From an uncultured bacterium (GTDB lineage: Bacteria > Patescibacteriota > Minisyncoccia > Phycocordibacterales > DATDWN01): a DNA stretch of 64,000 nt. Positions 10,129-39,273 of this stretch are shown in pieces. The position numbers were made by a program, and so were the translations under genes. The notes below the pieces were generated by a model. That model saw only the letters and a list, made by a program, of their open reading frames with translations. It made no database searches and had not been told where the DNA came from. Numbering within the stretch: the stretch's first letter is position 1; each line of letters starts with the position of its first letter. Location of the stretch: NCBI GenBank assembly GCA_903861205.1, contig CAIOTC010000022.1, positions 25 to 64,024 of the forward strand. Reading direction: 5' to 3'.

Positions 10129-11346
10129 TTACAAGGCATCCGCCAATGAATACGTCGGTCCCAACATCGATATCGCAAACACCCCCACCGCCGCGCCGAT
10201 AATAATCATCAGGACCGGCTCGATAATCGACGACATATCTTTCGTTTTCTGATCAACTTCATCCTCGTAAAATGTAGCCACGCCCAGAAGCATTTCCCCT
10301 ATTTTACCCGTCTCCTCGCCAACGGAAACCATTTCGCCGACAAAAAGCGGATACAATTTTTCATGCTTTACGAATATTGCCGAAATTTGTTCGCCTTTCT
10401 GAATAGCCACTTCGATTTCGTTCAGCACGTCTTTGTAGTAGGAATTTTGAACGACGTCCTTTGTCACGCCGATGGCAATAACAATATCAACGCCGGACGA
10501 AAGAAGCGACGAGAGCGTCCGAGCGGTGCGAGCCGAGTTAATCTGCTGAGTTATTTCGCCGATGACAGGCGTGCGCAAAAGTATCGTGTCCCAAATTCTC
10601 TGGCCCAGCGTTGTGCGCAAACCCCAGATGACAAACATGACCAAAGCAACAACTCCGACAGCCACAAACAGAAAGTAATTTTTCAAAAAATCGCTCATGG
10701 CAATAATAATGCGTGTCGAGAGCGGCAAGGCCACCCCAAGTCCTTTGAAAGTGGATGTCAGTGTCGGCACCATGTAAATCATCATCAGCACGCCGATGAC
10801 CAGCATGAGCGAAAAAATAACCGCCGGATACATCATAGCACCGCGGATTTTTTTGGTCAGCTGGTACGACTTTTCCATCTGATTGCTGACGTTTCGCAAG
10901 GCCAGCACCAGATTGCCGGATTCCTCGCCAGCCCGAACCATCGAAACGAAAAGGGTGTTGAAAACGTTCGGATATTTTTTCATGGCGTCCGAAAGCGTCT
11001 CGCCTTTGGAAAGCGAATCATTCAAATCATGCAAAATATTTTTCAACTTCCCTTTCTTGGCCTGACGCTCCATGATAGAAAGTCCGCGAGTGATGGGAAG
11101 CCCGGCGTCAATCATCTGCCCGAGGTTTCTGGAAAAAGTGATTTTGTCGTGCGCTTTGACACCGCCGAGAAAAGGAAAAAGATTGTTCAAAGAAAAATTA
11201 TTCCCATCTTTGGCCTCTGTCGCCGAGACAACGGTACTGCCATCTTTTTTGAGCAAATGATACAGCTCGAATTTATCCTTGGCATCCATTACGCCTTCAA
11301 TATTTTTCCCCTCTTTATCTATGGCTTTGTAGTTGAAAATTGTCAT
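10129..11346 (-). CDS. pilC: Type IV pilus assembly platform protein PilC (GspF family)
   Basis: 405 aa with two GspF-type repeats and three transmembrane segments. It lies in the operon with pilB. Confidence 0.85.
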   Translation of the reverse strand: MTIFNYKAIDKEGKNIEGVMDAKDKFELYHLLKKDGSTVVSATEAKDGNNFSLNNLFPFLGGVKAHDKITFSRNLGQMIDAGLPITRGLSIMERQAKKGKLKNILHDLNDSLSKGETLSDAMKKYPNVFNTLFVSMVRAGEESGNLVLALRNVSNQMEKSYQLTKKIRGAMMYPAVIFSLMLVIGVLMMIYMVPTLTSTFKGLGVALPLSTRIIIAMSDFLKNYFLFVAVGVVALVMFVIWGLRTTLGQRIWDTILLRTPVIGEITQQINSARTARTLSSLLSSGVDIVIAIGVTKDVVQNSYYKDVLNEIEVAIQKGEQISAIFVKHEKLYPLFVGEMVSVGEETGKIGEMLLGVATFYEDEVDQKTKDMSSIIEPVLMIIIGAAVGVFAISMLGPTYSLADAL

Positions 11347-11350
11347 TTAT

Positions 11351-11926
11351 TTATTTTTTAACGACAAACCCAATCGGATTTTTTCGTGATTCCGACGGAA
11401 TTTTTCTAATTTTATTAATTTCGTCAACCAAAAATCCTATTATCGAGGAATGTTTTTTTTGAGCATTTTCAACTCTTTCCATTCTGTTTGCTAAATCCTT
11501 ATTACCAGCAATCATCTCTCGCAATTTAACAAAAGCTCTAATTATCAAAATGTTCATTTGCACAGCCTGTTTGCTTTTTAAAACAGAAGAAAGCATGGCG
11601 ACTCCGTGTTCGGTAAAAACATATGGTAAATAACGACGACCACCATAACTTGAGGTTGCAAATTGTAACCTCAAGTTTGAGGTCATAATTTGTGACTTCC
11701 AATTTTCAGATTCTTCCTTGGTAAGTTGAAACATAAAATCTTTTGGGAAACGGTCCTTATTGCGACGTACAGCCAAATTCAAGTTTTTTGTAAGCACCTG
11801 ATACAACTCTGCCAAATCAGAGTCAAACATCACTTTTTCTCCACGAATCAAATAAATCTGACGTTCAACACGTTCAAGCGGAATTAAATTTTTACTGTCA
11901 ACTTTTTTCTTTTGAGCAAGCTTCAT
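11351..11926 (-). CDS. ORF6N/ORF6C (KilA-N-related) domain protein. Start placed at internal Met MKLAQKK.
   Basis: IRGEKVMFDSDLAELYQVLTKNLNLAVRRNKDRFPKDFMFQL (ORF6N domain) and LPYVFTEHGVAMLSSVL (ORF6C domain). It is a paralog of 33551..34108. Confidence 0.7.
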   Translation of the reverse strand: MKLAQKKKVDSKNLIPLERVERQIYLIRGEKVMFDSDLAELYQVLTKNLNLAVRRNKDRFPKDFMFQLTKEESENWKSQIMTSNLRLQFATSSYGGRRYLPYVFTEHGVAMLSSVLKSKQAVQMNILIIRAFVKLREMIAGNKDLANRMERVENAQKKHSSIIGFLVDEINKIRKIPSESRKNPIGFVVKK

Positions 11927-12125
11927 ATTCACTATAATTGTATCAAAAAATATTTTATTTTTCACAAAATATGTGCACAAGAAATTTTTTTTGAAAACAA
12001 AAAAGCCCTCCGGTGAAGGATAGGCGTGTGTACATCTGTACACTGGTTCGTGGGTCTGCCACTTGGTTACTGCTGACTGGTTAAGAAGAAGTGCTACGCA
12101 ATCGTACTACGGAAGGGTTGGCAAG

Positions 12126-13093: not shown

Positions 13094-14848
13094 TTACTCT
13101 GACGCTACTCTCAAAACTTCTTCAATAGTTGTAGATCCCTGCACTGCCTGGAAAATGCCATCCTCGATCATGGTCAGCATACCTTCGGCTTCGGCTTGTT
13201 TTTGAATGGCGTCGGTTGTGCCGTCCTTTAAAATGACTTCCTTAATAGCCGGGGAAACTTTCATTATTTCGTGAATGCAAGCGCGACCGCTATACCCTTC
13301 CTCCGAGGCGGCACCTTTTTTCGGTCGCCAGAACGGCACCTTGTCCCAGGTGTCGGATTTGCCGACGATTTTTTCTTCCTGCAGAGCTTTCAAAATTTTG
13401 TCCATGTTGGCCGATTTGCCGAGAGTGGCCAGTTCAGGTTTTGTCAGGAAATATTTTTCCTTTTGGTCGGAAAGTTTTCGAACCAGTCGCTGGCCGATGA
13501 TGATATTTATGGTTGAAACGATGAGGAACGGTTCGACTTTCATATCCATCAGTCGCGGTACAGCGCCGGCGGCCGAGTTAGTGTGCAAAGTGGAGAGGAC
13601 GACGTGGCCGGTCAGCGAAGCGTTGATGGCGAGAGAGGCCGTTTCGTTGTCGCGAATTTCACCGACCATAATAATGTCCGGATCCTGGCGAACCAGCGTG
13701 CGCAATCCGTTGGCAAATGTCAAACCAATTTCCGAGCGAACTTGCGTTTGGTTGATGCGCTTCATTTGGTACTCGATCGGATCCTCGACGGTCGAAATGT
13801 TAACGTCCGGTGTATTGAGAATGTCGAGCACAGTATATAGTGTGGTCGTTTTTCCGGAACCAGTCGGGCCGGTGGTCAAAATCATGCCGGTCGTGGACTT
13901 GAGCGCGCGGTGAATTCGCTCGAGACCTTCGCCGTGAAAGCCAAGAACTTCCAGGGTGAAATTGGAAACATTCTCGCGAAGCAAACGCATGACAGTTTTT
14001 TCGCCGTAATACGTAGGCAATGTCGAAACGCGAAAGGAAACTTTTTCGCCGTTCATGTCGATTTTGAAACGGCCATCCTGTGGCAAGCGTTTTTCGTCGA
14101 GTTTGAGCGCGGAAAGAACTTTGATGCGCGCGGTAATCGAGGCGGCCGTGTTTTTCGGCAAAATCATGGCGTCGTGAAGCAAACCGTCGATGCGATAGCG
14201 CACCAAAAGCTCCTGCTCCTGCGGTTCGATGTGAATATCGGAAGCGTTTTGCAAAATGGCGTGTTTCAAAAGTGTGTCGACAATACGCACCACCGGCACG
14301 TCGTCGGCCAATTTTTTCAAATCATCTTCGGAAACATCCTCACCATCACCCGCGTCAGGAATGCTTTGAAGTTGGACAGCATCTTTGGCAATGAGATCAC
14401 CGAACTCGGCTTTGAGCGATTTTTGATACTGGAGCAGAACGCTTTTCATCGACTCGCCGTCGGTGAGCCTCGGCAAAATTTTCAAGCCGACTTTCTTTTT
14501 GATGAAATCGATGGCCGTCAAATCCTCGGTGTCGAGCATGGCTACCTCGAGCGCCGTGTCTGTTTTTTTGAAAGCAATGATGTTGTGGTTGCGGGCAATC
14601 GGTTCGGGCACAAGCGAGAGAACTTCGAACGGAATTTTTTCCGTTTTCAAATCGACAAAAGGAATGCCGAGAATGTAAGCTTGCATCCGGCGCAAATCGT
14701 CCTCGGTCAGTTTTCCACCATTGACCAAAATTTTGCCGATCCCCTCACCCGTTTTCTCGTGATCCTTTTCGGCCAGCGTCACATCCGCCCGAGAAACAAG
14801 ACCCGAGTCCAAAATAAAATCCCTAAGTTGTGATTCTTCAATGTGCAT
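13094..14848 (-). CDS. pilB: Type IV pilus assembly ATPase PilB (GspE family)
   Basis: 584 aa. Walker A GPTGSGKTTT, Asp box, His box, and an N-terminal GspII_E-type domain. Confidence 0.9.
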   Translation of the reverse strand: MHIEESQLRDFILDSGLVSRADVTLAEKDHEKTGEGIGKILVNGGKLTEDDLRRMQAYILGIPFVDLKTEKIPFEVLSLVPEPIARNHNIIAFKKTDTALEVAMLDTEDLTAIDFIKKKVGLKILPRLTDGESMKSVLLQYQKSLKAEFGDLIAKDAVQLQSIPDAGDGEDVSEDDLKKLADDVPVVRIVDTLLKHAILQNASDIHIEPQEQELLVRYRIDGLLHDAMILPKNTAASITARIKVLSALKLDEKRLPQDGRFKIDMNGEKVSFRVSTLPTYYGEKTVMRLLRENVSNFTLEVLGFHGEGLERIHRALKSTTGMILTTGPTGSGKTTTLYTVLDILNTPDVNISTVEDPIEYQMKRINQTQVRSEIGLTFANGLRTLVRQDPDIIMVGEIRDNETASLAINASLTGHVVLSTLHTNSAAGAVPRLMDMKVEPFLIVSTINIIIGQRLVRKLSDQKEKYFLTKPELATLGKSANMDKILKALQEEKIVGKSDTWDKVPFWRPKKGAASEEGYSGRACIHEIMKVSPAIKEVILKDGTTDAIQKQAEAEGMLTMIEDGIFQAVQGSTTIEEVLRVASE

Positions 14849-27353: not shown

Positions 27354-27830
27354 TTAGGCTACTTCCTTTAAAGGTTCATACTCAAAACAAACTTGTTTCT
27401 TCATGCCCGTATCATAGTGCGACTTGGCGCGGATCTTTTGACCGGAAAAAACGAGTGGTATCCATGTTTTGTCCGCGTGCCACATTCTGTCAAATGGCAT
27501 GTTGCTCATACTATGCAATTCCGGAAAACCCATCTCCTCGGTTTCGCGCAAATCCCCCGCCCACCTGCGACAAAAATAAATATGACACTCGTAAAGATGG
27601 ACTTCCCCTTCAAAAAAGTCTATGACGGCCACTTTTTCCAAATCCCGCTTTGAGGCAACCGCACCCGCTTCCTCCTCCAACTCGCGAATGGCCGTATCAT
27701 CAATTGTTGTGTCAATTGGTTTTTGTTTGCCTCCATATCCATTCAAAAAACCAACACCAAACCCGTCTTTTTTGTTGGCAAGAAAAACATTTTGACCCTG
27801 AATTGGAAAAACAATAGTGGTTATTCTCAT
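27354..27830 (-). CDS. NUDIX hydrolase
   Basis: Nudix box GGKQKPIDTTIDDTAIRELEEEAG. Confidence 0.75.
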   Translation of the reverse strand: MRITTIVFPIQGQNVFLANKKDGFGVGFLNGYGGKQKPIDTTIDDTAIRELEEEAGAVASKRDLEKVAVIDFFEGEVHLYECHIYFCRRWAGDLRETEEMGFPELHSMSNMPFDRMWHADKTWIPLVFSGQKIRAKSHYDTGMKKQVCFEYEPLKEVA

Positions 27831-30260: not shown

Positions 30261-31733
30261 ATGAAAATCGAATTTCCGGTACCACAGGAAGTTACACGTG
30301 TAACAGAAACACTCAAAAAGGCAGGTTTTGAGGCTTTTTTGGTGGGTGGATGCGTGCGAGATCTGTTTTTGAATAGAAAACCGAAGGACTGGGATGTGAC
30401 CACGAACGCCACACCGGAGCAGATAATTCCTTTATTTCCACACACATTTTACGAAAACACGTTCGGAACTGTCGGGATTGTAAATGATGAGACCGAGGAT
30501 TCGAGCTTAAAAACCGTGGAAGCCACTCCATATCGTATAGAATCCGACTATTCTGATAATCGTCATCCGGATAAAGTGACATTCAGCCAGAAAATCGAGG
30601 ACGATTTGAAAAGACGAGATTTTACCATGAACGCTTTAGCCTACGATACAACGACAGGGAAGATAATAGACCTGTTTGATGGGATAAAAGACATAAAGGA
30701 CAAAACCATTAGAACAGTAGGGAAGCCGGAGGATAGATTCAAGGAAGACGGCTTGCGAATACTTCGAGCTGTACGCTTTTTCGCTGAACTCGGCTTTGTT
30801 GTTTCACCTGAAACAGAGAAAGCTATTCTTGAAAACGCAGATTTGTTGAAAAACATTTCAAAAGAGAGGATTCGCGATGAGTTTACCAAGATAATCATGT
30901 CAGAAAAGCCAATGGATGGACTTTTGTTGCTGCGAAAACTCGGTTTGATGAAGTATGTCATTCCACAAATGGAAGAAGCGTATGATATAGAACAAAATCA
31001 TGCACATAAATACGATGTCTGGGAGCATTTAATCCGAAGTGTTCAAACTGCAGCCGATAAGAACTTTCCCCTGGAAATCCGTTTAACGGCTATGGTACAC
31101 GATATTTCCAAGCCGGCCGCTCGCCGATGGGACGCCGAACACGAACAATGGACTTTTTACGGCCATGAAGTTTTGGGTTCACGTGAAACGAAGAAAATTC
31201 TTTCCGACTTACGTTTCCCGGCAAAGGTTGTTGAAAAAGTAACGACACTTGCCCGTTGGCATATGTTTTTTTCCGATACCGAGCAAATTACGCTCTCTGC
31301 GGTCCGTAGAATGATTGCCAATGTTGGACGAGAAAACATCTGGGATTTGATGAATGTGCGCATATGCGACCGTATAGGGACCGGCAGGCCCAAGGAAGAT
31401 CCATATCGTCTACGAAAATATCACGCCATGATCGAAGAAGCACTTCGCGATCCGGTTTCCGTAGCAATGCTTAAGATTGACGGCAAAAAAATAATGGATG
31501 TTACACGGGAAACACCTGGACCGAAAATCGGTTGGACTTTGCACGCTCTGCTCGAGGAAGTTTTGGATGATCCAAAGAAAAATACCGAGGAATATCTGGA
31601 AAATCGCGCAAAAGAGCTATTTTCATTGCCTGAAAATGAATTGGAAGCTCTGGGCGAGAAAGGAAAACAAACAAAAGAGGAAGCAGATGAGGAGGAAATA
31701 AAGAAAATACGTGGAAAACATTGGGTTAAATAG
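30261..31733 (+). CDS. cca: CCA-adding tRNA nucleotidyltransferase with a C-terminal HD domain
   Basis: LVGGCVRD...DWD polymerase-beta head domain, and the HD motif in ...MVHDISKP. Confidence 0.85.
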   Translation: MKIEFPVPQEVTRVTETLKKAGFEAFLVGGCVRDLFLNRKPKDWDVTTNATPEQIIPLFPHTFYENTFGTVGIVNDETEDSSLKTVEATPYRIESDYSDNRHPDKVTFSQKIEDDLKRRDFTMNALAYDTTTGKIIDLFDGIKDIKDKTIRTVGKPEDRFKEDGLRILRAVRFFAELGFVVSPETEKAILENADLLKNISKERIRDEFTKIIMSEKPMDGLLLLRKLGLMKYVIPQMEEAYDIEQNHAHKYDVWEHLIRSVQTAADKNFPLEIRLTAMVHDISKPAARRWDAEHEQWTFYGHEVLGSRETKKILSDLRFPAKVVEKVTTLARWHMFFSDTEQITLSAVRRMIANVGRENIWDLMNVRICDRIGTGRPKEDPYRLRKYHAMIEEALRDPVSVAMLKIDGKKIMDVTRETPGPKIGWTLHALLEEVLDDPKKNTEEYLENRAKELFSLPENELEALGEKGKQTKEEADEEEIKKIRGKHWVK

Positions 31734-32157: not shown

Positions 32158-32388
32158 ATGAAAACACTTCACGTCGTCGCCTTCATACTTCTTGTTGTGG
32201 GAGGTTTGAATTGGGGATTGGAGGTTTTTGGTTGGGGAATCGGCAGTTGGGGATTCTTGCCGACAGTGGTCGTGCAAGCAATATATTTGTTGGTGGCCGT
32301 TTCCGCATTAGTGGAAATTTTCACCCACAAAAGCAACTGTGCACATTGCGCTTCAAAGGAAGCAGCACCTATGAGTACTACGATATAA
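32158..32388 (+). CDS. DUF378-like small membrane protein
   Basis: VGGLNWGL...VYLLVAVSAL. Confidence 0.6.
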   Translation: MKTLHVVAFILLVVGGLNWGLEVFGWGIGSWGFLPTVVVQAIYLLVAVSALVEIFTHKSNCAHCASKEAAPMSTTI

Positions 32389-32448: not shown

Positions 32449-33243
32449 TTACTTGATTTCCAGTTCGATAGGGCAGTGGTCGGAGCCGAGAACATCGGAA
32501 AGAATTTTTGAACTTTTGACCTTTGGCAAAAATTCTTTGTTGACGAAAAAATAATCAATGCGCCAGCCGATATTTCTTTCTCGAGCATTTCGCCAGGGCG
32601 TCCACCATGTATAGTGACCATTGCCTTTTGTAAAATGGCGAAAGGTATCAACAAATCCACCTTTGACCAACATGTCGATTCCTTCACGCTCTTGTTTTGT
32701 AAAACCATGATTACCCTCATTTTCCTTTGGATTGGCCAAGTCATCCTCGGTATGCGCCACATTCAGATCACCACAGAAAATGACCGGTTTTGTCTTTTTT
32801 AGATCTTTTATATATTCCAAAAATGCAGGATCCCAGCCTTTGTGTCGCAGATCCAAACGACTCAAATCTTGCTTGGCGTTCGGAGTGTAAACATTAACCA
32901 CATAAAAATTAGCAAATTCAGCTGTCATAACTCGGCCTTCTTTGTTTGGATCACCGTAACCGTCTTCGGAAAGTTTGTACTTGGCGCAAATTTCCTCTGA
33001 GAAACCGAAAGAAACGCTTACAGGTTTTTCACGGCAAAAAATAGCTGTTCCACTGTAACCGGCTTTCACAGCTGAATTCCAATATTCTTCGTACTCGGGC
33101 AAATCCACTTCGCTTTGGTGTTGCTGGGCTTTCGTTTCCTGCAAACAAATGATATCCGGTTTGTATTTCTCAACAAAAGGCACAAAAAGTCCTTTTTTAT
33201 GCACCGCCCGCAAACCGTTGACGTTCCAAGAGATTATTTTCAT
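32449..33243 (-). CDS. xth: Exodeoxyribonuclease III
   Basis: MKIISWNVNGLRA...C-terminal GSDHCPIELEI. Confidence 0.9.
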   Translation of the reverse strand: MKIISWNVNGLRAVHKKGLFVPFVEKYKPDIICLQETKAQQHQSEVDLPEYEEYWNSAVKAGYSGTAIFCREKPVSVSFGFSEEICAKYKLSEDGYGDPNKEGRVMTAEFANFYVVNVYTPNAKQDLSRLDLRHKGWDPAFLEYIKDLKKTKPVIFCGDLNVAHTEDDLANPKENEGNHGFTKQEREGIDMLVKGGFVDTFRHFTKGNGHYTWWTPWRNARERNIGWRIDYFFVNKEFLPKVKSSKILSDVLGSDHCPIELEIK

Positions 33244-33283
33244 CCCTCCATTTTAGCAAATTACAAACAAATCTGCATTTTGA

Positions 33284-33322
33284 CCCTGTGATATTGCCCA
33301 GAGGGCACCTATATCACAGGGT
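33284..33322 (-). promoter_or_regulatory. Family D copy 2, in the 5' region of xth (same orientation relative to its downstream gene)
   Basis: The reverse complement reads ccctgtgatataggtgccctctgggcaatatcacaggg. Confidence 0.55.
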
Positions 33323-33550
33323 GGACTTTTAACATAATTCAGCGTAGTGTAATTATCGGAGGCGACACAATGGTACCAACACTCAATCTTCTGCATGCAA
33401 ATAACGTGAAATTTATTGGAGAAATTCACTTGGAAATTGACAGATTTCTCAAAAAATTAGTCGTTTTATGCTTCGTTGTGGCAGTTCTTTGTTTTTCCAT
33501 GACAACATACATATTCTTGAAGTAGGGAACCGTCCGTCGGTTCTCTTTTT

Positions 33551-34108
33551 TTATTTCGTATTAAAACCAATTTTTGATTTTGGTTTTACTTTTTCAACAA
33601 TTAGTTGGCGAATTGCATCAAAAATAGAAGCAAACTGACCATCATATTTTTGCTCCAAATCATCAAGTCTTTTAGCAATATCTTTATGCGATAACATCAA
33701 TTCGCGAATTCGCACAAATACTCTCATAATTGCAATGTTCATTTCAATAGCTCTGTTACTATTTAAAACACTGGATAACATAGCAACACCTTGTTCAGTG
33801 AATACATAAGGTAAATTACCAATGTTGCGTTTTGATGCGGTCACACTTTGTGACCGCATATTGACATTTGGTATCACAAATTGTGATACCAAATGAAGCG
33901 AATTTGTCTCTTTGATATTAAGTTGAAACATAAAATCTTTCGGAAACCTTTTTATGTTCCTTTTTACCGCTTGATTGAGAACTTTTGTCGGCACACCATA
34001 CAATTCTGCTAAATCACTATCCATCATCACTTTTTGACCACGAATAAAATATATTTTTCTCTCTATAAACTCTGCCGGAACCAAAACTTTTAAACTTATT
34101 TTACTCAT
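33551..34108 (-). CDS. ORF6N/ORF6C domain protein (second paralog)
   Basis: IRGQKVMMDSDLAELYGVPTKVLNQAVKRNIKRFPKDFMFQL and LPYVFTEQGVAMLSSVL. Confidence 0.7.
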   Translation of the reverse strand: MSKISLKVLVPAEFIERKIYFIRGQKVMMDSDLAELYGVPTKVLNQAVKRNIKRFPKDFMFQLNIKETNSLHLVSQFVIPNVNMRSQSVTASKRNIGNLPYVFTEQGVAMLSSVLNSNRAIEMNIAIMRVFVRIRELMLSHKDIAKRLDDLEQKYDGQFASIFDAIRQLIVEKVKPKSKIGFNTK

Positions 34109-34114
34109 GAAAAA

Positions 34115-34654
34115 TTAAAAAGAATATTTATTTGTAACATATTTTTCTAACTCCTTTGTCAATTCGTAAACCAAATCTTTTTCGGGTGATTCAGGACAAC
34201 TTTCCAAAAACTTGCGAATCAAAACTATATATTGGTCGTGATAAGGTTTCTCCGGTTCTGACTGACGGATTTTGGTTATCCCTCTCAGATTAGCGGTGAA
34301 ATCAGCCAATTTTATTATTTTTGCTTTTGGTGATGTGTGATTCAGGTGTTCATAATATTCAACTTGCTGAATTTTGTTATAATTTTTTGGATGAGAAACT
34401 TCTTGGACCAAATCGGCCACCTCTTTTGAAAAAGTCTGTTCCAACTCCTCGTATGTTGTTTCAGTGTCTTCCAAAGTGTCGTGGAGAATAGCTGAAACCA
34501 AAATGTCCGGATCTTCAACATAAAATTCGTTTTGCAAAACTGCCAAAACATCAGGCCAATGATTGTCCGCGCCGGCTTCTTTGAATTTCCGTATGGCAAA
34601 TTCTTTTGCATGTTCAATTTTTTCAGCAGATTCCATATTTTTTATTTCTTCCAT
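34115..34654 (-). CDS. Small HD-domain hydrolase of the RelA/SpoT type, a small alarmone hydrolase (SAH) that is Mesh1-like
   Basis: VSAILHDTLEDTETTYEELEQTFSKEVADLVQEVSH closely matches the RelA/SpoT HD consensus AALLHDVVEDT...EVA.LV.GVTK. There is no synthetase domain. Confidence 0.7.
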   Translation of the reverse strand: MEEIKNMESAEKIEHAKEFAIRKFKEAGADNHWPDVLAVLQNEFYVEDPDILVSAILHDTLEDTETTYEELEQTFSKEVADLVQEVSHPKNYNKIQQVEYYEHLNHTSPKAKIIKLADFTANLRGITKIRQSEPEKPYHDQYIVLIRKFLESCPESPEKDLVYELTKELEKYVTNKYSF

Positions 34655-34659
34655 AAATT

Positions 34660-35157
34660 TTATTTGTTATTATATTTCTCTTTCATTTCCATCGCACGTT
34701 CCATAATTCTGTCAGCAGCGTCGCTCCACTTTATATATTGTTTGAAATCCTGAGGATTAATTAATTTGATTTCTGTAATATCTCCGTCCGGATCAGAAAC
34801 AAAATCGCCATATGGTTCAACTATGCAAAAAGAATTTGCATGAAATATTGTTTTACCACTTTCAAACGTTAGAATCTGATATCCGATGTATTCTTGATGC
34901 AAAACTTTCATATTCGATTCTTCTTTTACCTCCCGTGTGGTAGCTTCTTCGAGTGTCTCGCCTTTTTCAATAGCGCCACCCGGAAATCCCCACGTATCGT
35001 TTTTATCACGAACAATAACCAACTTGTCCCCATAAAAACAATGGCCACTGACACCATTTAAAACAATCCCTTTAAGTTCAATCTCAGGATTACCTTCTTT
35101 ATACATAATATCAACTTTTTTTCCTTCCTTTGTGACAGTTTGAGATTTTATTTCCAT
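34660..35157 (-). CDS. NUDIX hydrolase
   Basis: Nudix box GFPGGAIEKGETLEEATTREVKEESN. The gap to the SAH gene is 5 nt. Confidence 0.75.
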   Translation of the reverse strand: MEIKSQTVTKEGKKVDIMYKEGNPEIELKGIVLNGVSGHCFYGDKLVIVRDKNDTWGFPGGAIEKGETLEEATTREVKEESNMKVLHQEYIGYQILTFESGKTIFHANSFCIVEPYGDFVSDPDGDITEIKLINPQDFKQYIKWSDAADRIMERAMEMKEKYNNK

Positions 35158-35703
35158 GGTTTTAGTATAACAAATTTATGTAAACAAAAAGGGCTACCTC
35201 CGATATCATCGAAAGTAGCCCGTAACATAAAGCGCGGACAGAACGCCGGCGCTATACGCTATGATCTCGCGTCGATATCGACGCCAGGCCCAGCGACAGA
35301 AACGAACGAACTGTCGCCAGAGGGAAGTCGCGGTCCTTCTCAACACGCGTCCCGTCCAGCCCATGTATGCATGGTGCTGGCGAACGATCATCGAGAAGCC
35401 GAACCCCATGACCCAAATTACAAGGGCCATGAAAAAGAGCGTATTGAAAGCCTGCATTTCCGTTCTCCTTTTTTTTTCCCACTTGCCTCGGCGAATGGAA
35501 ATTTTGCCATTTTGCCGGGAAGTCCGTTTGGTGTCCTTGTGGACACCACCAGTTTGAACGGGAAGGGGAAGGCGGATGCCTTTCCGTACCTCCCTCATGG
35601 AAATTACGGTCTTTGCTTTTTTCATAAAGAACTCCTGCCAAAGAAAATTTTTTAAACTTGCTTTGGTAGAAGCCCGATCCGGTGTTTTGGATCGGGCAAA
35701 GGA

Positions 35704-36366
35704 TTACTTCTGATGATTGCGACGGGTTTTGAAAGCCATCGCATAGCGGATCTGGAGTTGAGGCGCGCCTTGTGGCATGCGCTGAAGCCAAAATTCCAAA
35801 TCGCCGTACCGTCCGCCTTTGAGGGTAACCGAGGCAAAGGGTTTGTGTTCCCATTTGGCTTCGCCGAACTGGTATGCGCCGTAGCCACCACCGAGCTTCC
35901 ATCGCCTGAACTCGTACTCCACCTTGGACCTCTCCAGAACATGCTGGATGCGTCCGGATTTGTTGAGTGGCAAGTAGGGGAAGTAGCAGGTCTCGCTCGC
36001 AATCTTGGGCGTCACTTTCCAGATAACCAGTGTCCAAGGAATAAAGTATGTTGCATTCCCTGAAGCTGTGCCGATTGCCTGTTCGATGTAGCCTTCCTCG
36101 ATAACGACGAACCGCTTAGAAGCGTGCAGGATTGCACCGCCGCCGATGCCAATCTCCCGGTAGTTGTTCTTACCGAAGTCGATGTAAAGCACATCGGGGT
36201 AGATCCAGCGGCCGCGGGTCTGATAGACCTCGGCATAGTGGTAGGTCGCTGTGTTCCTTGTGCCCATGCGAGCCATCACCGAAGTTTCGATCTCCTGCGC
36301 GTTGAGCGAAGAAAGACCGGCGAATAAGGCAAACATCACTATAATCGTTCTCATAATTCCTCTCAA
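35704..36366 (-). CDS. Exported beta-rich protein with a Gram-negative-style signal peptide, inside a GC-rich island
   Basis: MRTIIVMFALFAGLSSLNAQE signal peptide, then an aromatic-rich alternating pattern. GC is far above the window average. Confidence 0.4.
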   Translation of the reverse strand: MRGIMRTIIVMFALFAGLSSLNAQEIETSVMARMGTRNTATYHYAEVYQTRGRWIYPDVLYIDFGKNNYREIGIGGGAILHASKRFVVIEEGYIEQAIGTASGNATYFIPWTLVIWKVTPKIASETCYFPYLPLNKSGRIQHVLERSKVEYEFRRWKLGGGYGAYQFGEAKWEHKPFASVTLKGGRYGDLEFWLQRMPQGAPQLQIRYAMAFKTRRNHQK

Positions 36367-37001
36367 AGAACTTGAATTTTACTCCTGTGTAACGTTGTTT
36401 CTGTACTTTTCCAGTTCTCTATTATACACCCATTACAATCACTTGTCAAGTATTTTCGGGGAGAATTTTTAGCTTATTTTGAGCCCAAATTAGCCTTTTG
36501 TGATTGCCCCCACCGCAGAAAACTTTTGCAAAATTTTCTCTGGTAGAAGTCCCTGCTTAGCAGGGACTGGCTCGTCGCCTCGGCGGATTTTTCTCGGATT
36601 CTTCCAGCTTAATTCGATCTTGTGCCGCCAGAGTCGCTCCGACTGACACCGACAAACTAAAGCCGTGTTTTTTGAGAAACTCGACACAGCCGTCGTAGTT
36701 GCCATTTGAAGCTATCAAGTATGCTTTGGCAACCATGAGCGGCACACGGCCGGGATTTCTTTGAACTCTCAATGCTAAAGAAAGTTTCTGATGAGACATT
36801 GGATCTCCTTTCGCCGTTTTCCGCCCGGCAGGCGTATTTTAAAGAACTTTGGGATTTCTCCCTTCAAAACATTCTCACTGAAAATGTTTTGAAGGGAGCT
36901 CAATCGAAGACCGATTGAGCGACTCGTTTTTAGCAACTGGTGAGCATCATCCAGTATCAACACGAATTTAAAGTCCTCATGTCTCCCGGACCGACCTCCT
37001 T

Positions 37002-37289
37002 TCAGCTGGTCAGGCTGTCACGCCTCTTCCGTCGAGGAATGAAGAATTCAACCACCATGAATGCCGCAAAAACTGCGCAGCACCCGCCGAGCATCCAAGC
37101 TGACTTGGCAATCGGCGCCGGCAAATGGTTGAATCTGGCCGCGTGGAAGAAAATCCCCGCCGTGGCCGCCTGAAGCACGAACATGAAAAAGCAGAGAATC
37201 TTCTTGAACACGTTCGTCTCCATCACCCCGATGACCGCCAAGATAAATTCAACGATGTAATACAACACCCACTCAAAGAACGATCCCAT
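37002..37289 (-). CDS. Small polytopic membrane protein (95 aa) preceded by a long structured leader
   Basis: Two or three TM helices. RBS gggagga lies 5 nt upstream and sits inside a hairpin. Confidence 0.45.
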   Translation of the reverse strand: MGSFFEWVLYYIVEFILAVIGVMETNVFKKILCFFMFVLQAATAGIFFHAARFNHLPAPIAKSAWMLGGCCAVFAAFMVVEFFIPRRKRRDSLTS

Positions 37290-37880
37290 AAATTCCTCCC
37301 GTTTGGGAAATGAAGGTGGGATTTTTCATTTCTCAAACGGAAGCCCGAGAAAATTCTCGGGCGGTTGTGCGTCTTTCCGACGCGGTGAATTGCAAAAGAA
37401 CTGTGTGCAGTGGGAGTCTTGGTTTGGCAACCTTGACTCCCTGGGTGCCAACCCACTCTCGCTCTTGTTGGTCCGCATTCTCCCGCCCGAATCACTCGGT
37501 ACCAGGTGCGGTATCTTCCTATCTGAACTACTCTTATAACCTCGGCGAAAGCCGGGCGAGCAGACAGAATTGCTAGGTTGATAGCTGAGCGATCAAGCCC
37601 CTGCCGTAATGTATCTCTGCACAGATACACGACTAATTTCAAAATTTTGGGAGCGAAACTGGCCCGCCGGCCTCGTGTGGGGTGGCACGGGGCATACGCC
37701 CGCACCACGAAAATCCCACGGCGGTGGGTGGTCTTGGTAGACCGCCACACGATGTTTCGCTCCCACTTAGGGGTCCCTCGCAACTCAAATTCGTGCGAAC
37801 CGGACCGCCTGAGCGGAAGCAAAACTGTCAGACGTTTAAAACATTTCAATATTTGATTCTGGGATAAGCATACACCCATC
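37290..37880 (-). ncRNA. Candidate structured 5' leader or non-coding RNA. It is ORF-poor and GC-rich. It contains a pseudoknot-capable segment and a hairpin that sequesters the RBS. The class is not identified.
   Basis: On the minus strand just 5' of the start codon: ccgtttgagaaatgaa-aaatcccacc-ttcatttcccaaacgg, whose 3' arm continues into GGGAGGA-attt-ATG. At plus 37405-37460, GGGAGTC..TTGGCA..GACTCCC..TGCCAA are interleaved complementary pairs. There is long-range pairing GGGAGCGAAAC...GUUUCGCUCCC around 37640-37760. Confidence 0.35.
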
Positions 37881-38149
37881 CATATTTTTTGTCAAGAACT
37901 TTTGACACTTTATACAAAATACTTTTTCTGACACAAAAAATATGGCCTAATATATGGCCATTTTTGAACGCAAAACAAAATGAGATTAATTTTGATCACT
38001 GACAGAACATGTTTTTCAAGAAAAGTTTTTGTGAAAAATTTTCTAAATTTTATCAAAAAATAGTGTTTTTGCGAAAAAACACTATTTTTTACTACAATAT
38101 GGCTAGAAATATGATTTTATTGTAAATTTGATACGAAAATGACAAAAAC

Positions 38150-38520
38150 ACTTGACATTTTAATTCGAGTTTGCTAAGCTTGTTCGCGGAGGTGATCAAT
38201 GGAGGACTAGAGAAGCGGAGTGCTGCTTCCTAGTGAAATCCATTGTCACTAGGAAGCAGCATTTTGCGGATCAAAATCCGTCACCTCTGTAGTTAACAAT
38301 TAAAGACAGTCGGCCCACCTCGTTCGCCTTAACTTCGTTTCGATTTAGGTGGTGCCCGAAAAAAGGTGCGAAATGCAAGATTGACGCTGGAGAAACAGCC
38401 GGCCGGAATCCCGGTCGACCAGTGACTCCTAATTTGTTCGCAAGCTGGGTCGTAGGGCGTTCAACGTTCCACGTATTCAGCAAAAAAGGCCCCGCTCATC
38501 GGGGCCTTTCTCAATTTCAA
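38150..38520 (+). ncRNA. Candidate small RNA locus: a promoter-like TTGACA-17-TAAGCT, a 16 bp perfect hairpin, a 3-codon uORF with a perfect Shine-Dalgarno sequence, and a terminal hairpin
   Basis: cacttgacattttaattcgagtttgctaagctt; ggaggtgatcaATGgaggacTAG; tgctgcttcctagtga-N13-tcactaggaagcagca. It ends at the hairpin ggccccgctcatcggggcc. Confidence 0.25.
38482..38510 (-). terminator. Rho-independent terminator of the TrmB-like gene (reads on the minus strand as ggccccgatgagcggggcc + ttttttg)
   Basis: GC-rich stem followed by a T-run on the minus strand. Confidence 0.65.
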
Positions 38521-38523
38521 AAA

Positions 38524-39273
38524 TTATTTCTTATAATTGTCAAAAATGACCTTAAACAAACTTTTCATTGTTTCTGCCACATCTTCACTTTGAATTGAAA
38601 TACTTGAAAATCTTTTGTTAAGCACACTTATGCGCACTTTATCTTTATAAATAGCGATATCACAGGTAAGTGGGTATTTCTTGCCATCAATTTTATATCT
38701 CTCACTCATATCATCCGACGGAATTTCTCCATTTTCAAACGTATATAAAGCTTTAGATTTAACTTTTTTATTCAATCTCCTTTGTTTGAATTGACTCCTT
38801 TCATCAAGAGGAAATAATTTGTCTAGCAAATCCCTTGGATAGATAAGGTATATTGGCTCTTCTGTATTGGTATCGTTTTCGAAAATACCGTTGACCGCAC
38901 TGACAATTCCTTCCTTGCCGTCATAATATTTGACCACCGGTCGCTCACCGGAACCACGTTCGATGCCTTTGATTTGGGGAATAATATCTTTCAAACGCTT
39001 GCTATTTTCATCCAAAACAAGCTTTTGACGTTCAACAAAAGTCTCCAGTCTCTCCGGTGGTTCGGCTTGGTAGTGAGTTTTCTTGCCGACAGTCGTTTCT
39101 GACACCAGACCTTTTTTGGAGAGAGATTCCAAAACCACGTAGACGGTTGGCCGTTTCAGCTTTGTTTTCTTGGCTAAATCAAGAACCGAGGCGTTATCCA
39201 CCTGAACCAGAGCCAAATATACTGTAGATTCCTTGTCAGTTAAACCTATGTTTTGCAAATATTTTTCAAGCAT
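38524..39273 (-). CDS. TrmB family transcriptional regulator
   Basis: N-terminal winged HTH: IGLTDKESTVYLALVQVDNASVLDLAKKTKLKRPTVYVVLESLSKKGLV. Confidence 0.7.
   Translation of the reverse strand: MLEKYLQNIGLTDKESTVYLALVQVDNASVLDLAKKTKLKRPTVYVVLESLSKKGLVSETTVGKKTHYQAEPPERLETFVERQKLVLDENSKRLKDIIPQIKGIERGSGERPVVKYYDGKEGIVSAVNGIFENDTNTEEPIYLIYPRDLLDKLFPLDERSQFKQRRLNKKVKSKALYTFENGEIPSDDMSERYKIDGKKYPLTCDIAIYKDKVRISVLNKRFSSISIQSEDVAETMKSLFKVIFDNYKK

Follow-up and report, generated by a model that had tools for sequence, protein, structure and literature searches.

The 64,000-nucleotide stretch of DNA analysed here (the window), from a Paceibacteria-type member of the ultra-small Patescibacteria (CPR), carries three adjacent minus-strand genes, which code for a Nudix hydrolase (34660..35157, 165 aa; Pfam NUDIX, 1.2e-11), a stand-alone RelA/SpoT-type HD hydrolase that resembles the small alarmone hydrolase (SAH) MESH1 (34115..34654, 179 aa; HD_4, 3.6e-10) and a KilA-N-like, predicted DNA-binding protein with an ORF6N domain (33551..34108, 185 aa; PF10543, 1.1e-32). 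The open reading frames are exactly those given in the first-pass annotation, and the small gaps reported there measure 5 nt between the Nudix and HD genes and 6 nt between the HD and ORF6N genes. Gaps of 10 nt or less separate 5 of the 33 same-strand gene pairs of the window, where the median gap is 82 nt, and these five include the pair formed by a second ORF6N gene and the PilC gene. The tight spacing of the triad is notable, but not unique. A terminator-like hairpin with a T-run (35191..35221, minus strand) is located between an upstream insertion (gene M139) and the start of the Nudix gene, and a GC-rich hairpin (33524..33546, minus strand), with a T-run on the plus strand only, directly follows the ORF6N stop codon. 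From the spacing and the bracketing hairpins, we infer that the three genes probably form one transcription unit here.

Downstream of the triad lie the genes of exodeoxyribonuclease III (xth, 32449..33243, minus strand; TIGR00633, 5.9e-91), a DUF378 protein (32158..32388, plus strand) and CCA tRNA nucleotidyltransferase (30261..31733, plus strand). This xth-DUF378-CCA block is a conserved anchor: in related genomes, it is found downstream of the HD gene (loci L006 and L011) or downstream of an ORF6N gene (L058-L060). On the other side of the triad, the gene of a TrmB-family regulator (38524..39273, minus strand; Pfam TrmB, 1e-15), a GC-rich spacer and the Nudix gene are syntenic with L055 and L056, from the species whose Nudix is the closest relative (84% identical) and whose Nudix gene is not followed by an HD gene. 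The window joins a TrmB-spacer-Nudix block, shared with L055, to a separate HD-...-xth-DUF378-CCA block, whose synteny is with L006 and L011. No credible Rfam family was matched by the GC-rich spacer, even at E ≤ 1, and in a metagenome pattern scan for further homologues, the second species was again the only one in which the spacer RNA turned up. The GC contrast described in the first-pass annotation was borne out, the GC content being 0.32-0.36 in the triad, 0.435 in the window and 0.49-0.53 in the adjacent 35.2-38.5 kb region. Low GC content as a mark of recent transfer of the triad was considered and rejected: since in other genomes, too, the HD and Nudix genes have a higher AT content than their flanks, low GC is a trait of these families and no sign of recent transfer.

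Besides HD_4, the HD protein matches Pfam HD (8.5e-06), and its best NCBIfam match is the hydrolase part of spoT_relA; with a length of only 179 aa, it has no synthetase domain. The motif ILHDTLEDT, quoted in the first-pass annotation, is present (H58 D59 ... E62 D63). In the PDB, the sequence is matched best by MESH1 of human and of fly (63 bits, about 1e-16, about 30% identity). In a Foldseek search of the PDB with the AF2 model (pLDDT 94), the top 38 matches were all MESH1, SAH or Rel/SpoT hydrolase domains, with MESH1 (TM up to 0.77, 3nr1), PaSAH and RelH at the top. When the active site was checked against the HD1-HD6 motif definitions of PMC9293644, all metal ligands (HD2 His, HD3 His-Asp and HD5 Asp) as well as the catalytic Glu-Asp of HD4 were found in place. 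In an alignment of 36 family members, H32, H58, D59, E62 and D118 are invariant and D63 is kept in at least 90%. Judged by its domain, catalytic residues and predicted fold, the protein is an SAH, as had been proposed. It shares with MESH1 and the Mesh1-L SAHs, among them the orphan SAH of Xanthomonas (XccSAH), a single HD_4 domain of about 180 aa, the all-helical fold, the His, His-Asp, Asp and Glu-Asp set of residues and an orphan arrangement, with neither a synthetase domain nor an adjacent toxSAS gene.

The HD protein also differs from MESH1, and the family to which it belongs is restricted to Patescibacteria. The HD1 arginine and its loop are deleted: residues R23-K25 of MESH1 fall in a gap, and HMMER, MAFFT and hhalign agree in placing Ala or a gap opposite R24. 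The extended HD1 loop of metazoan Mesh1 is shortened in the window protein. HD5 reads Asp-Phe (D118-F119) instead of Asp-Lys/Arg, and the base-contact position of HD6, an Asn in the window protein (N122), is His in many family members. Since the Arg of HD1 is the residue that stacks on guanine, its absence, together with the Asp-Phe of HD5, suggests that (p)ppGpp may not be the substrate. Variants at HD1 and HD5 occur among SAHs, however, and PaSAH is active with a Leu at HD1 (PMC9293644), so neither the HD1 Arg nor a basic partner in HD5 is strictly required. Stringent-response tuning, one of the roles suggested in the first-pass annotation, may still apply.

We also looked for a cognate toxSAS or other synthetase gene. 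A search with an approximate RelQ query gave no tblastn match to an RSH synthetase in the window or in L001-L054. The synthetase motif E[IVLM]Q[IVLM]R[TS] was absent from the six-frame translation of the window and from the ORFs of L001-L054, and no recurrent SAS-like cluster was seen among the neighbors of HD genes. These searches, which have limited sensitivity to very divergent SAS and are weak as tests of the whole genome, revealed no RSH-synthetase signature near any HD gene in the window or L001-L054. In the data surveyed, these Patescibacteria have no known (p)ppGpp synthetase, and nothing informative was found in the literature on this alarmone or a stringent response in CPR/Patescibacteria.

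The Nudix box, which had been called intact, retains all its catalytic residues (G61-x5-E67-x7-R75 E76 V x E79 E80), while the last Gly of the consensus is replaced by N82, an Asn that is invariant across the family. This Patescibacteria-wide family, with at least 956 homologues that are nearly all about 165 aa long, is marked by an N-terminal beta-hairpin extension and a C-terminal motif, DPDGDIxEIKLIDP..Y..W. The AF2 model (pLDDT 90) has the alpha/beta/alpha Nudix fold, and its best match, B. subtilis RppH (YtkD; 4jzu, TM 0.73-0.76), covers the entire protein, N-terminal strands included. The two proteins are, however, only 21% identical, and TIGR02705 (YtkD), the top NCBIfam match, scored 40.9 bits, far below its curated cut-off of 154.4 bits. 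The likeness to RppH/YtkD is therefore one of predicted structure and does not extend to membership in the RppH family by the curated criterion.

The third protein contains an ORF6N domain (residues 18-114; 112.6 bits against a cut-off of 27.8 bits) followed by a helical tail. It had been described as an ORF6N/ORF6C protein; the first part of this description holds, and no ORF6C domain was found in Pfam at E ≤ 0.01. Like the ORF6N/KilA-N-like proteins of phages and integrative elements, it has strong HMM matches, among them PHROG "anti-repressor" (1e-27) and, over the full length, PDC-S05 of PADLOC (5e-53), an entry that stands for a candidate system only. More than 8000 homologues, about 60% identical, are spread across phyla. 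In the closest relatives, the gene is followed by that of a Xer-like recombinase, then by xth and the gene of the CCA enzyme. A second copy in the window (11351..12043, minus strand; probable ATG at 11926), 49% identical to the first, sits in a pilus locus between pilB (13094..14848) and pilC (10129..11346), 4 nt from the latter. In contrast to the ORF6N proteins of phages and integrative elements, the protein of the triad lacks ORF6C, and here as in relatives such genes are chromosomal, with a Xer-like recombinase gene and xth beside them or within the pilus locus. The two copies share no flanks or mini-element, their similarity being restricted to the coding regions.

Conservation of the triad as a unit had been set beforehand as a test of the first-pass annotation. 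An ORF6N gene was next to the HD gene in 0 of 44 GTDB loci and in none of the other HD-centred contigs examined, contigs of the same species excepted. We therefore reject a functional Nudix-HD-ORF6N unit and assign the third gene to the ORF6N-Xer-like recombinase-xth-CCA neighborhood. It is an unrelated, horizontally promiscuous gene for a predicted DNA-binding protein and happens to lie in a fluid slot upstream of xth.

The first two genes behave differently. HD genes were surveyed in 44 species-level loci (GTDB species representatives) and five HD-centred metagenome look-ups, and a Nudix gene was counted as same-family when it matched at E < 1e-20 within 5 kb. Such a gene was present in 8 of the 44 loci, in several orientations: the HD gene precedes the Nudix gene with a 4 nt overlap in L016, the two are convergent in L053, a Nudix-Nudix fusion lies 570 bp upstream of the HD gene in L032, and three Nudix paralogues surround it in L039. 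In L043, L044 and L049, Nudix and HD domains form a single continuous protein of 340-343 aa, with the domain order of the window; at about 90% identity to one another, these proteins are taken as a single fusion event. Since the pairing recurs in different arrangements and as a single fused protein in three species, it looks functional, which supports this part of the first-pass annotation. It is nevertheless facultative. In the three closest HD orthologues (L011, L012 and L013; 72-75% identical) the partner Nudix gene is not adjacent, and the gene next to the closest Nudix orthologue (L055/56) is that of a PemK toxin, the partner HD gene not being adjacent there. When any Nudix gene was counted, the number rose to 18 of 44 loci, hardly above background, because Nudix genes are dense in these genomes (the 64 kb window has two). 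In seven loci, the HD gene is immediately followed by a thymidylate-kinase-like gene, and uridine-kinase/PRK-like genes are recurrent neighbors as well; a HAD phosphatase gene adjoins the HD gene in L007 and is fused to it in L013. Since HD domains are elsewhere fused to HAD, DUF3592 and an NTase-like domain, fusion to Nudix is not exclusive. SAHs have been described as generally single-domain proteins (PMC3153485), and the HD family of the window departs from this description in having fused or adjacent partners (Nudix, HAD).

We propose, with about even confidence, that the Nudix and HD proteins are functionally coupled nucleotide phosphohydrolases that act sequentially in a clean-up and salvage role. 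The Nudix protein, as a YtkD/RppH-like pyrophosphohydrolase, would cleave diphosphate linkages on the 5′ side, and the MESH1-like HD protein would take a pyrophosphate or phosphate off the 3′ (or 2′) position of a ribonucleotide by Mn2+/HD chemistry. By sequential action, a purine nucleotide hyper-phosphorylated in the manner of (pp)pGpp/(pp)pApp would be converted to an ordinary NMP; NADPH, CoA and pAp-type cofactors would be less likely substrates. Such a role would suit an organism whose nucleotide metabolism is minimal. The Nudix enzymes NahA of B. subtilis, Ndx8 of T. thermophilus and MutT/NudG of E. coli trim the 5′ side of (p)ppGpp, and RSH hydrolases remove its 3′-pyrophosphate, the two being complementary ways of breaking it down (PMC10112252). 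As in the window, a Nudix enzyme and an RSH-type hydrolase coexist in these systems, although the two are not reported to be adjacent or fused there. The window Nudix is set beside NahA and Ndx8 by their described role and not by sequence, its nearest solved fold being that of RppH/YtkD. The coupled action of the pair gains support from the other neighbors and fusion partners of the HD domain, since these too are nucleotide or phosphoester enzymes. It loses support because the pairing is facultative, Nudix genes are dense, the fusions amount to one event and the HD domain is fused to other domains as well. The missing HD1 Arg and the Asp-Phe of HD5, by which (p)ppGpp may not be the substrate, also count against it, as does the lack of a known (p)ppGpp synthetase in the data surveyed.

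A bolder version, which we consider improbable as a whole, would make the Nudix-HD pair or fusion a dedicated "alarmone eraser" working in two steps, in episymbiotic Patescibacteria that do not synthesise (p)ppGpp of their own. The pair would then destroy (pp)pGpp/(pp)pApp, or repair 3′-pyrophosphorylated tRNA, imposed on the cell by Tas1-like or toxSAS-like toxins of the host or of competitors or acquired by uptake from the host, and the products would be recycled as NMPs; the loss of the HD1 Arg would reflect broadened or adenine-directed specificity.

The alternative that survives best, though we think it rather unlikely, is that there is no functional unit at all and that three genes, for a housekeeping SAH, for a Nudix protein with many paralogues and for a mobile ORF6N protein, adjoin by chance in a compact, rearranging genome, their spacing being due to genome compaction. 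The other neighbors of the closest orthologues of each gene, the junction in the window of two separately syntenic blocks, the frequency of Nudix genes and the five short gaps among 33 same-strand pairs, ORF6N-2/PilC among them, all agree with it. On the other hand, chance would place a same-family Nudix gene at most 5 kb from HD in about 1-5% of loci (an estimate that takes roughly 1-4 copies of the family in a genome of up to 1 Mb), whereas it was found in 8 of 44, in at least four arrangements, and the Nudix-HD fusion has been kept in three species.

It is less probable still that the pair acts on RNA ends, with the Nudix protein removing a 5′-pyrophosphate or nucleotide cap and the SAH a 3′-pyrophosphate or phosphate from RNA or tRNA, in the way that SAHs treat tRNA whose CCA end has been pyrophosphorylated by toxSAS toxins. 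The full-length structural match of the Nudix protein to BsRppH points in this direction, but with the score for TIGR02705 so far under its cut-off, RppH membership is not established. The neighborhood is rich in RNA-metabolism genes (those of the CCA-adding enzyme, an NYN nuclease, PNPase and S15), which, however, belong to separate transcription units on the other strand. According to a preprint (bioRxiv 10.1101/2021.04.30.441581), toxSAS enzymes pyrophosphorylate the CCA end of tRNA, and SAHs including MESH1 neutralise toxSAS toxicity (PMC7229694); against this, the other recurrent neighbors of the HD gene, nucleotide kinases and HAD phosphatases, point to free nucleotides.

SAHs are commonly treated as antitoxins, as counter-defence genes of phages or as orphan tuners of metabolism. 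The locus reveals a Patescibacteria-specific, MESH1-like clade of SAHs that has lost the canonical base-stacking Arg, its repeated pairing with a single family of Nudix proteins, which goes as far as a naturally fused Nudix-SAH protein, and its neighborhood of nucleotide kinases and phosphatases. Together, these features give a testable handle on the role of SAH-type enzymes under minimal nucleotide metabolism, and the natural Nudix-HD fusion would lend itself well to a search for the true substrate.

The first-pass annotation had also considered a phage counter-defence cassette. Stand-alone SAHs of toxSAS-SAH type IV toxin-antitoxin systems and of phages (PbcSpo and PaSpo) are comparable to the HD protein, which could in principle neutralise toxic alarmones; it differs from them in having no adjacent SAS gene and no phage or prophage context and apparently in belonging to a different, MESH1-like SAH lineage. 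A tblastn search of 50,697 phage genomes and a pattern scan of IMG/VR found no relatives of the HD protein, and the Nudix protein gave only generic matches in the phage searches (31-42% identical). Both families are chromosomal and specific to Patescibacteria, and the position of the HD gene beside xth-DUF378-CCA is syntenic in a relative. That the triad is a phage or mobile-element cassette destroying alarmone or cyclic-nucleotide immune signals is therefore largely refuted and very improbable: phage-encoded SAHs do neutralise toxSAS toxins (PMC7229694), the HD protein matches phrog_990 (1.4e-22), the ORF6N protein matches "anti-repressor" PHROGs and PDC-S05, and the triad is AT-rich relative to the window, but both enzyme families keep to Patescibacteria chromosomes with housekeeping neighbors and lack phage relatives other than generic Nudix matches, the AT-richness of HD and Nudix is a family trait, ORF6N is unlinked to the enzymes elsewhere, and the triad has no integrase gene, no gene for a structural protein of phages and no known defence system beside it. 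The tempting annotation "anti-defence cassette" was unsupported and has been removed. In a PADLOC scan of 57 ORFs of the window, the two ORF6N copies (PDC-S05) were among the matches listed (25 of 63 matched families); the other listed matches were of the helicase type (GajB/UvrD-like and one RTasHel) and are assumed to be housekeeping helicases.

Three genes on the minus strand encode a Nudix protein (34660..35157; 165 aa; Pfam NUDIX, 1.2e-11), HD, a stand-alone RelA/SpoT-type hydrolase (34115..34654; 179 aa; Pfam HD_4, 3.6e-10), and an ORF6N protein (33551..34108; 185 aa; Pfam ORF6N, 1.1e-32). ORF coordinates and Pfam matches confirm the layout described in the first-pass annotation, with intergenic gaps of 5 and 6 nt; gaps of 10 nt or less are found in 5 of the 33 same-strand gene pairs of the window (median 82 nt). 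Since these short gaps are bracketed by a terminator-like hairpin with a T-run before the Nudix start (35221..35191) and a GC-rich hairpin after the ORF6N stop (33546..33524), the three genes are likely co-transcribed. NCBIfam matches the HD protein to the hydrolase part of spoT_relA. Close homologues of the genes all come from Patescibacteria (Paceibacterota, Nomurabacteria, Zambryskibacteria); tRNAs are present in the window, and no rRNA was found in it.

The first-pass annotation had interpreted the triad as a module that degrades nucleotide second messengers, for stringent-response tuning or counter-defence. Support was found for the enzyme pair, not for the triad as a unit or for the counter-defence reading. 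Same-family Nudix genes, defined by phmmer E<1e-20, were found at most 5 kb from HD at 8 of 44 loci. HD is followed by Nudix with a 4-nt overlap in L016, the two are convergent and abutting in L053, a Nudix-Nudix fusion lies 570 bp upstream of HD in L032, three Nudix paralogues surround HD in L039, and a Nudix gene is located 4.4 kb from HD in L037. In three GTDB species, Nudix and HD are fused in an uninterrupted protein of 340-343 aa (L043:4476-5507, L044:4479-5501 and L049:1166-2194); Pfam confirms the fusion, in which the domains follow each other end to end in the order of the window genes. The three fusion proteins are ~90% identical, pointing to one event retained across species. Because the arrangements differ, these loci imply that Nudix and HD were juxtaposed independently several times, and the two can, in part, be regarded as a pair. 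No description of a Nudix-HD fusion was found in the literature searched; the HD-Nudix coupling, up to natural fusion, occurs in a Patescibacteria-specific clade of small alarmone hydrolases (SAHs) without the HD1 motif.

Juxtaposition by chance would be consistent with the fact that the nearest HD orthologues have no adjacent Nudix gene of the same family, and with the genome carrying the closest Nudix orthologue (84%; L055/L056), where a PemK toxin gene follows Nudix and the HD gene is on another contig (L034). The recurrence and the fusion stand against a chance background of ~1-5% for the specific Nudix family, a value that was estimated and not measured, and we consider chance unlikely. 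The count of loci with any Nudix gene within 5 kb of HD (18/44) means little because Nudix genes are dense.

Other fusions of the HD domain were also detected: with a HAD phosphatase (L013:4350-5495; 381 aa), with DUF3592 (protein P0369; 348 aa) and, in protein P0003 (290 aa), with an N-terminal region of ~120 aa that weakly matches the nucleotidyltransferase DUF6036 (E 0.029). A thymidylate-kinase-like gene (PF02223, 5.7e-17; e.g., L032:5596-6168) lies within 4 kb of HD in seven species (L027, L029, L030, L032, L037, L045 and L048), directly downstream of HD where this was checked (L032), and uridine-kinase/PRK-like genes adjoin HD in L003, L012, L013 and L016. The overall theme of the HD neighbours is nucleotide metabolism. 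Short contigs with this Paceibacteria-type HD gene (L027, L030, L036 and several “Saccharibacteria” records) occur under GTDB titles that name Gammaproteobacteria, Methanosarcinales or Pseudomonadales; they probably reflect bin contamination or mislabelling rather than the true distribution of HD.

Among proteins of solved structure, the HD protein comes closest in sequence to human and Drosophila MESH1 (E ~1e-16); bacterial SAHs and the hydrolase domains of Rel/SpoT come next. A Foldseek search with its AlphaFold model (pLDDT 94; 36 homologues as input) likewise retrieved MESH1 (TM up to 0.77), P. aeruginosa SAH and C. glutamicum RelH as top matches. The active site was checked using the six-motif scheme for RSH hydrolases (PMC9293644). 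The catalytic His-Asp and the metal ligands are retained: H32 (HD2), H58-D59 (HD3), E62 (HD4 Glu) and D118 (HD5 Asp) are family-invariant, and D63 is present in at least 90% of family sequences. No counterpart of the HD1 Arg, which in RSH hydrolases stacks on guanine (PMC9293644), was found in alignments to MESH1 by HMMER, MAFFT and hhalign: Ala29 faces MESH1 R24 in the first two, and MESH1 R23-K25 fall in a deletion in the third. Phe119 takes the place of the Lys/Arg that partners the HD5 Asp. The HD6 position is Asn122, with His in many relatives. Since HD1/HD5 variants are known among SAHs and PaSAH retains activity despite a Leu at HD1 (PMC9293644), the HD protein is probably an active enzyme of uncertain base specificity.

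The Nudix box is intact in its catalytic residues (G61, E67, R75, E76, E79, E80), as had been annotated; its consensus-terminal Gly is replaced by Asn, which is invariant in the family. The family comprises at least 956 clusters, nearly all of ~165 aa, with an N-terminal beta-hairpin and a C-terminal DPDGDIxEIKLIDP motif as hallmarks. The nearest fold to the model (pLDDT 90) is B. subtilis RppH/YtkD over the full length (TM 0.73-0.76), with Ap4A/Ap6A hydrolases second. Because the YtkD NCBIfam score is far under the family cut-off, the modelled likeness to RppH/YtkD is resemblance, not membership. A second, unrelated Nudix gene (27354..27830, minus strand; PF00293, 9.5e-07) lies ~7 kb from the triad.

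(p)ppGpp is cleaved on its 5′ side by Nudix enzymes such as NahA, Ndx8, MutT and NudG and loses its 3′-pyrophosphate to RSH hydrolases (PMC10112252); MESH1 also dephosphorylates NADPH and CoA (PMC13221220), and a MESH1-PAPS complex is present in the PDB. From this biochemistry we propose, giving it an even chance of being right, that Nudix and HD form a coupled pair that would serve clean-up and salvage by breaking 3′/2′-(pyro)phosphorylated purine nucleotides down to NMPs. A role in RNA-end processing, with which the RppH-like fold would be compatible and the low YtkD score less so, appears improbable.

Counter-defence, a reading to which the low GC and the phage-type ORF6N might point, is very improbable and not supported. 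Searches of IMG/VR and of 50,697 phage genomes turned up no relative of the HD protein and, for Nudix, only generic matches. We looked for a cognate toxSAS or other synthetase; neither a synthetase motif nor RelQ similarity was found in the window, nor in the ORFs (motif) or sequences (RelQ) of loci L001-L054. Among the PADLOC matches listed for the 57 window ORFs (25 of 63 matched families) are the two ORF6N copies; the others listed are helicase-type (GajB/UvrD-like, RTasHel) and are assumed to be housekeeping helicases. The GC content of the triad is 0.32-0.36 vs 0.435 in the window, which is a family trait, because HD and Nudix have a higher AT content than the sequence around them in L016, L043 and L055 too.

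The triad as a conserved unit was ruled out: no ORF6N gene was found near HD at any of the 44 loci (GTDB species representatives), and the triad is repeated only in L001 and L002, contigs of other samples with an identical HD protein, from the same species. Neighbourhoods of distant HD orthologues include PRK-like - HD - unknown - Nudix, GIY-YIG - HD - HAD, a pentose-phosphate context, and HD - Xer-like recombinase - xth (exodeoxyribonuclease III) - DUF378 - CCA (CCA tRNA nucleotidyltransferase). Downstream of HD, the last of these is syntenic with the window. ORF6N has >8000 homologues (~60% identity) across Nitrospirota, Thermodesulfobacteriota and CPR. Its profile matches include phage “anti-repressor” PHROGs and, in PADLOC, the candidate PDC-S05. 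Its nearest relatives (74-76% identical) stand in the order ORF6N - Xer-like recombinase - xth - CCA, and the recombinases of those loci are mutual orthologues (67-69%). An orthologous Xer-like tyrosine recombinase lies directly upstream of xth in relatives L006, L011 and L058-L060; the same position in the window (33244..33550) is only a 307-nt gap, and no homologue of the recombinase was found in the 64 kb. A second ORF6N paralogue, 49% identical to the triad copy (11351..12043, minus strand, probable start 11926), is located between PilB (13094..14848) and PilC (10129..11346), 4 nt from PilC; it has a separate promoter-like region, and a terminator precedes it. Both copies sit in low-GC dips, and sequence comparison found no common flanks. 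It follows from its spread, its other neighbourhoods and the second copy that ORF6N is no partner of the two enzymes but a promiscuous gene in a fluid slot upstream of xth.

What had been annotated as a GC-anomalous island consists of two parts. The first (38161..37292) aligns colinearly with the spacer between TrmB and Nudix in L055/56/63/64, from the species with the closest Nudix; short spacer blocks are 80-97% identical vs only 67% nt and 57% aa for the flanking TrmB gene. The spacer carries a promoter-like TTGACA-17-TGTATGCT that is conserved, and a GCCCGAG/CTCGGGC hairpin resembling a terminator. These elements enclose 536 nt (37335..37870, minus strand, with flanking conserved blocks to 38161 and 37292) with an MFE of -224 kcal/mol (z = -7.1), and two conserved hairpins carry 4 and 2 compensatory pairs (six in total), none broken. 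Rfam gave no match for the spacer. The region looks like an undescribed structured RNA of ~530 nt, a candidate known from only two distinct sequences.

The second part (36920..35158) is an insertion relative to the L055 species; it is found in several independent assemblies and is hence no assembly artefact. It contains small GC3-rich ORFs (0.48-0.66) on the minus strand, at 36557..36799, 35704..36366 (from its ATG at 36354, a 216-aa protein bearing the signal peptide MRTIIVMFALFAGLSSLNAQE) and 35206..35625 (a 139-aa membrane protein), with no match in Pfam, NCBIfam, PHROG or PADLOC. A 71-nt block next to it (36921..36991, minus strand) is 89% identical to L055 sequence that precedes the Nudix start by ~50-120 nt; it is parted from the window Nudix gene by the 1.76-kb insertion and may be the former 5′ leader of that gene. 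Contig L067 (3117 bp; sample ERZ18625277) is identical to window positions 37728..35095, as far as Nudix codon 21, and continues into unrelated sequence with a TypA/BipA-like GTPase not in the window. The intact triad (L001) comes from that sample as well, and the switch reflects either rearrangement at the strain level or a chimeric assembly of the contig.
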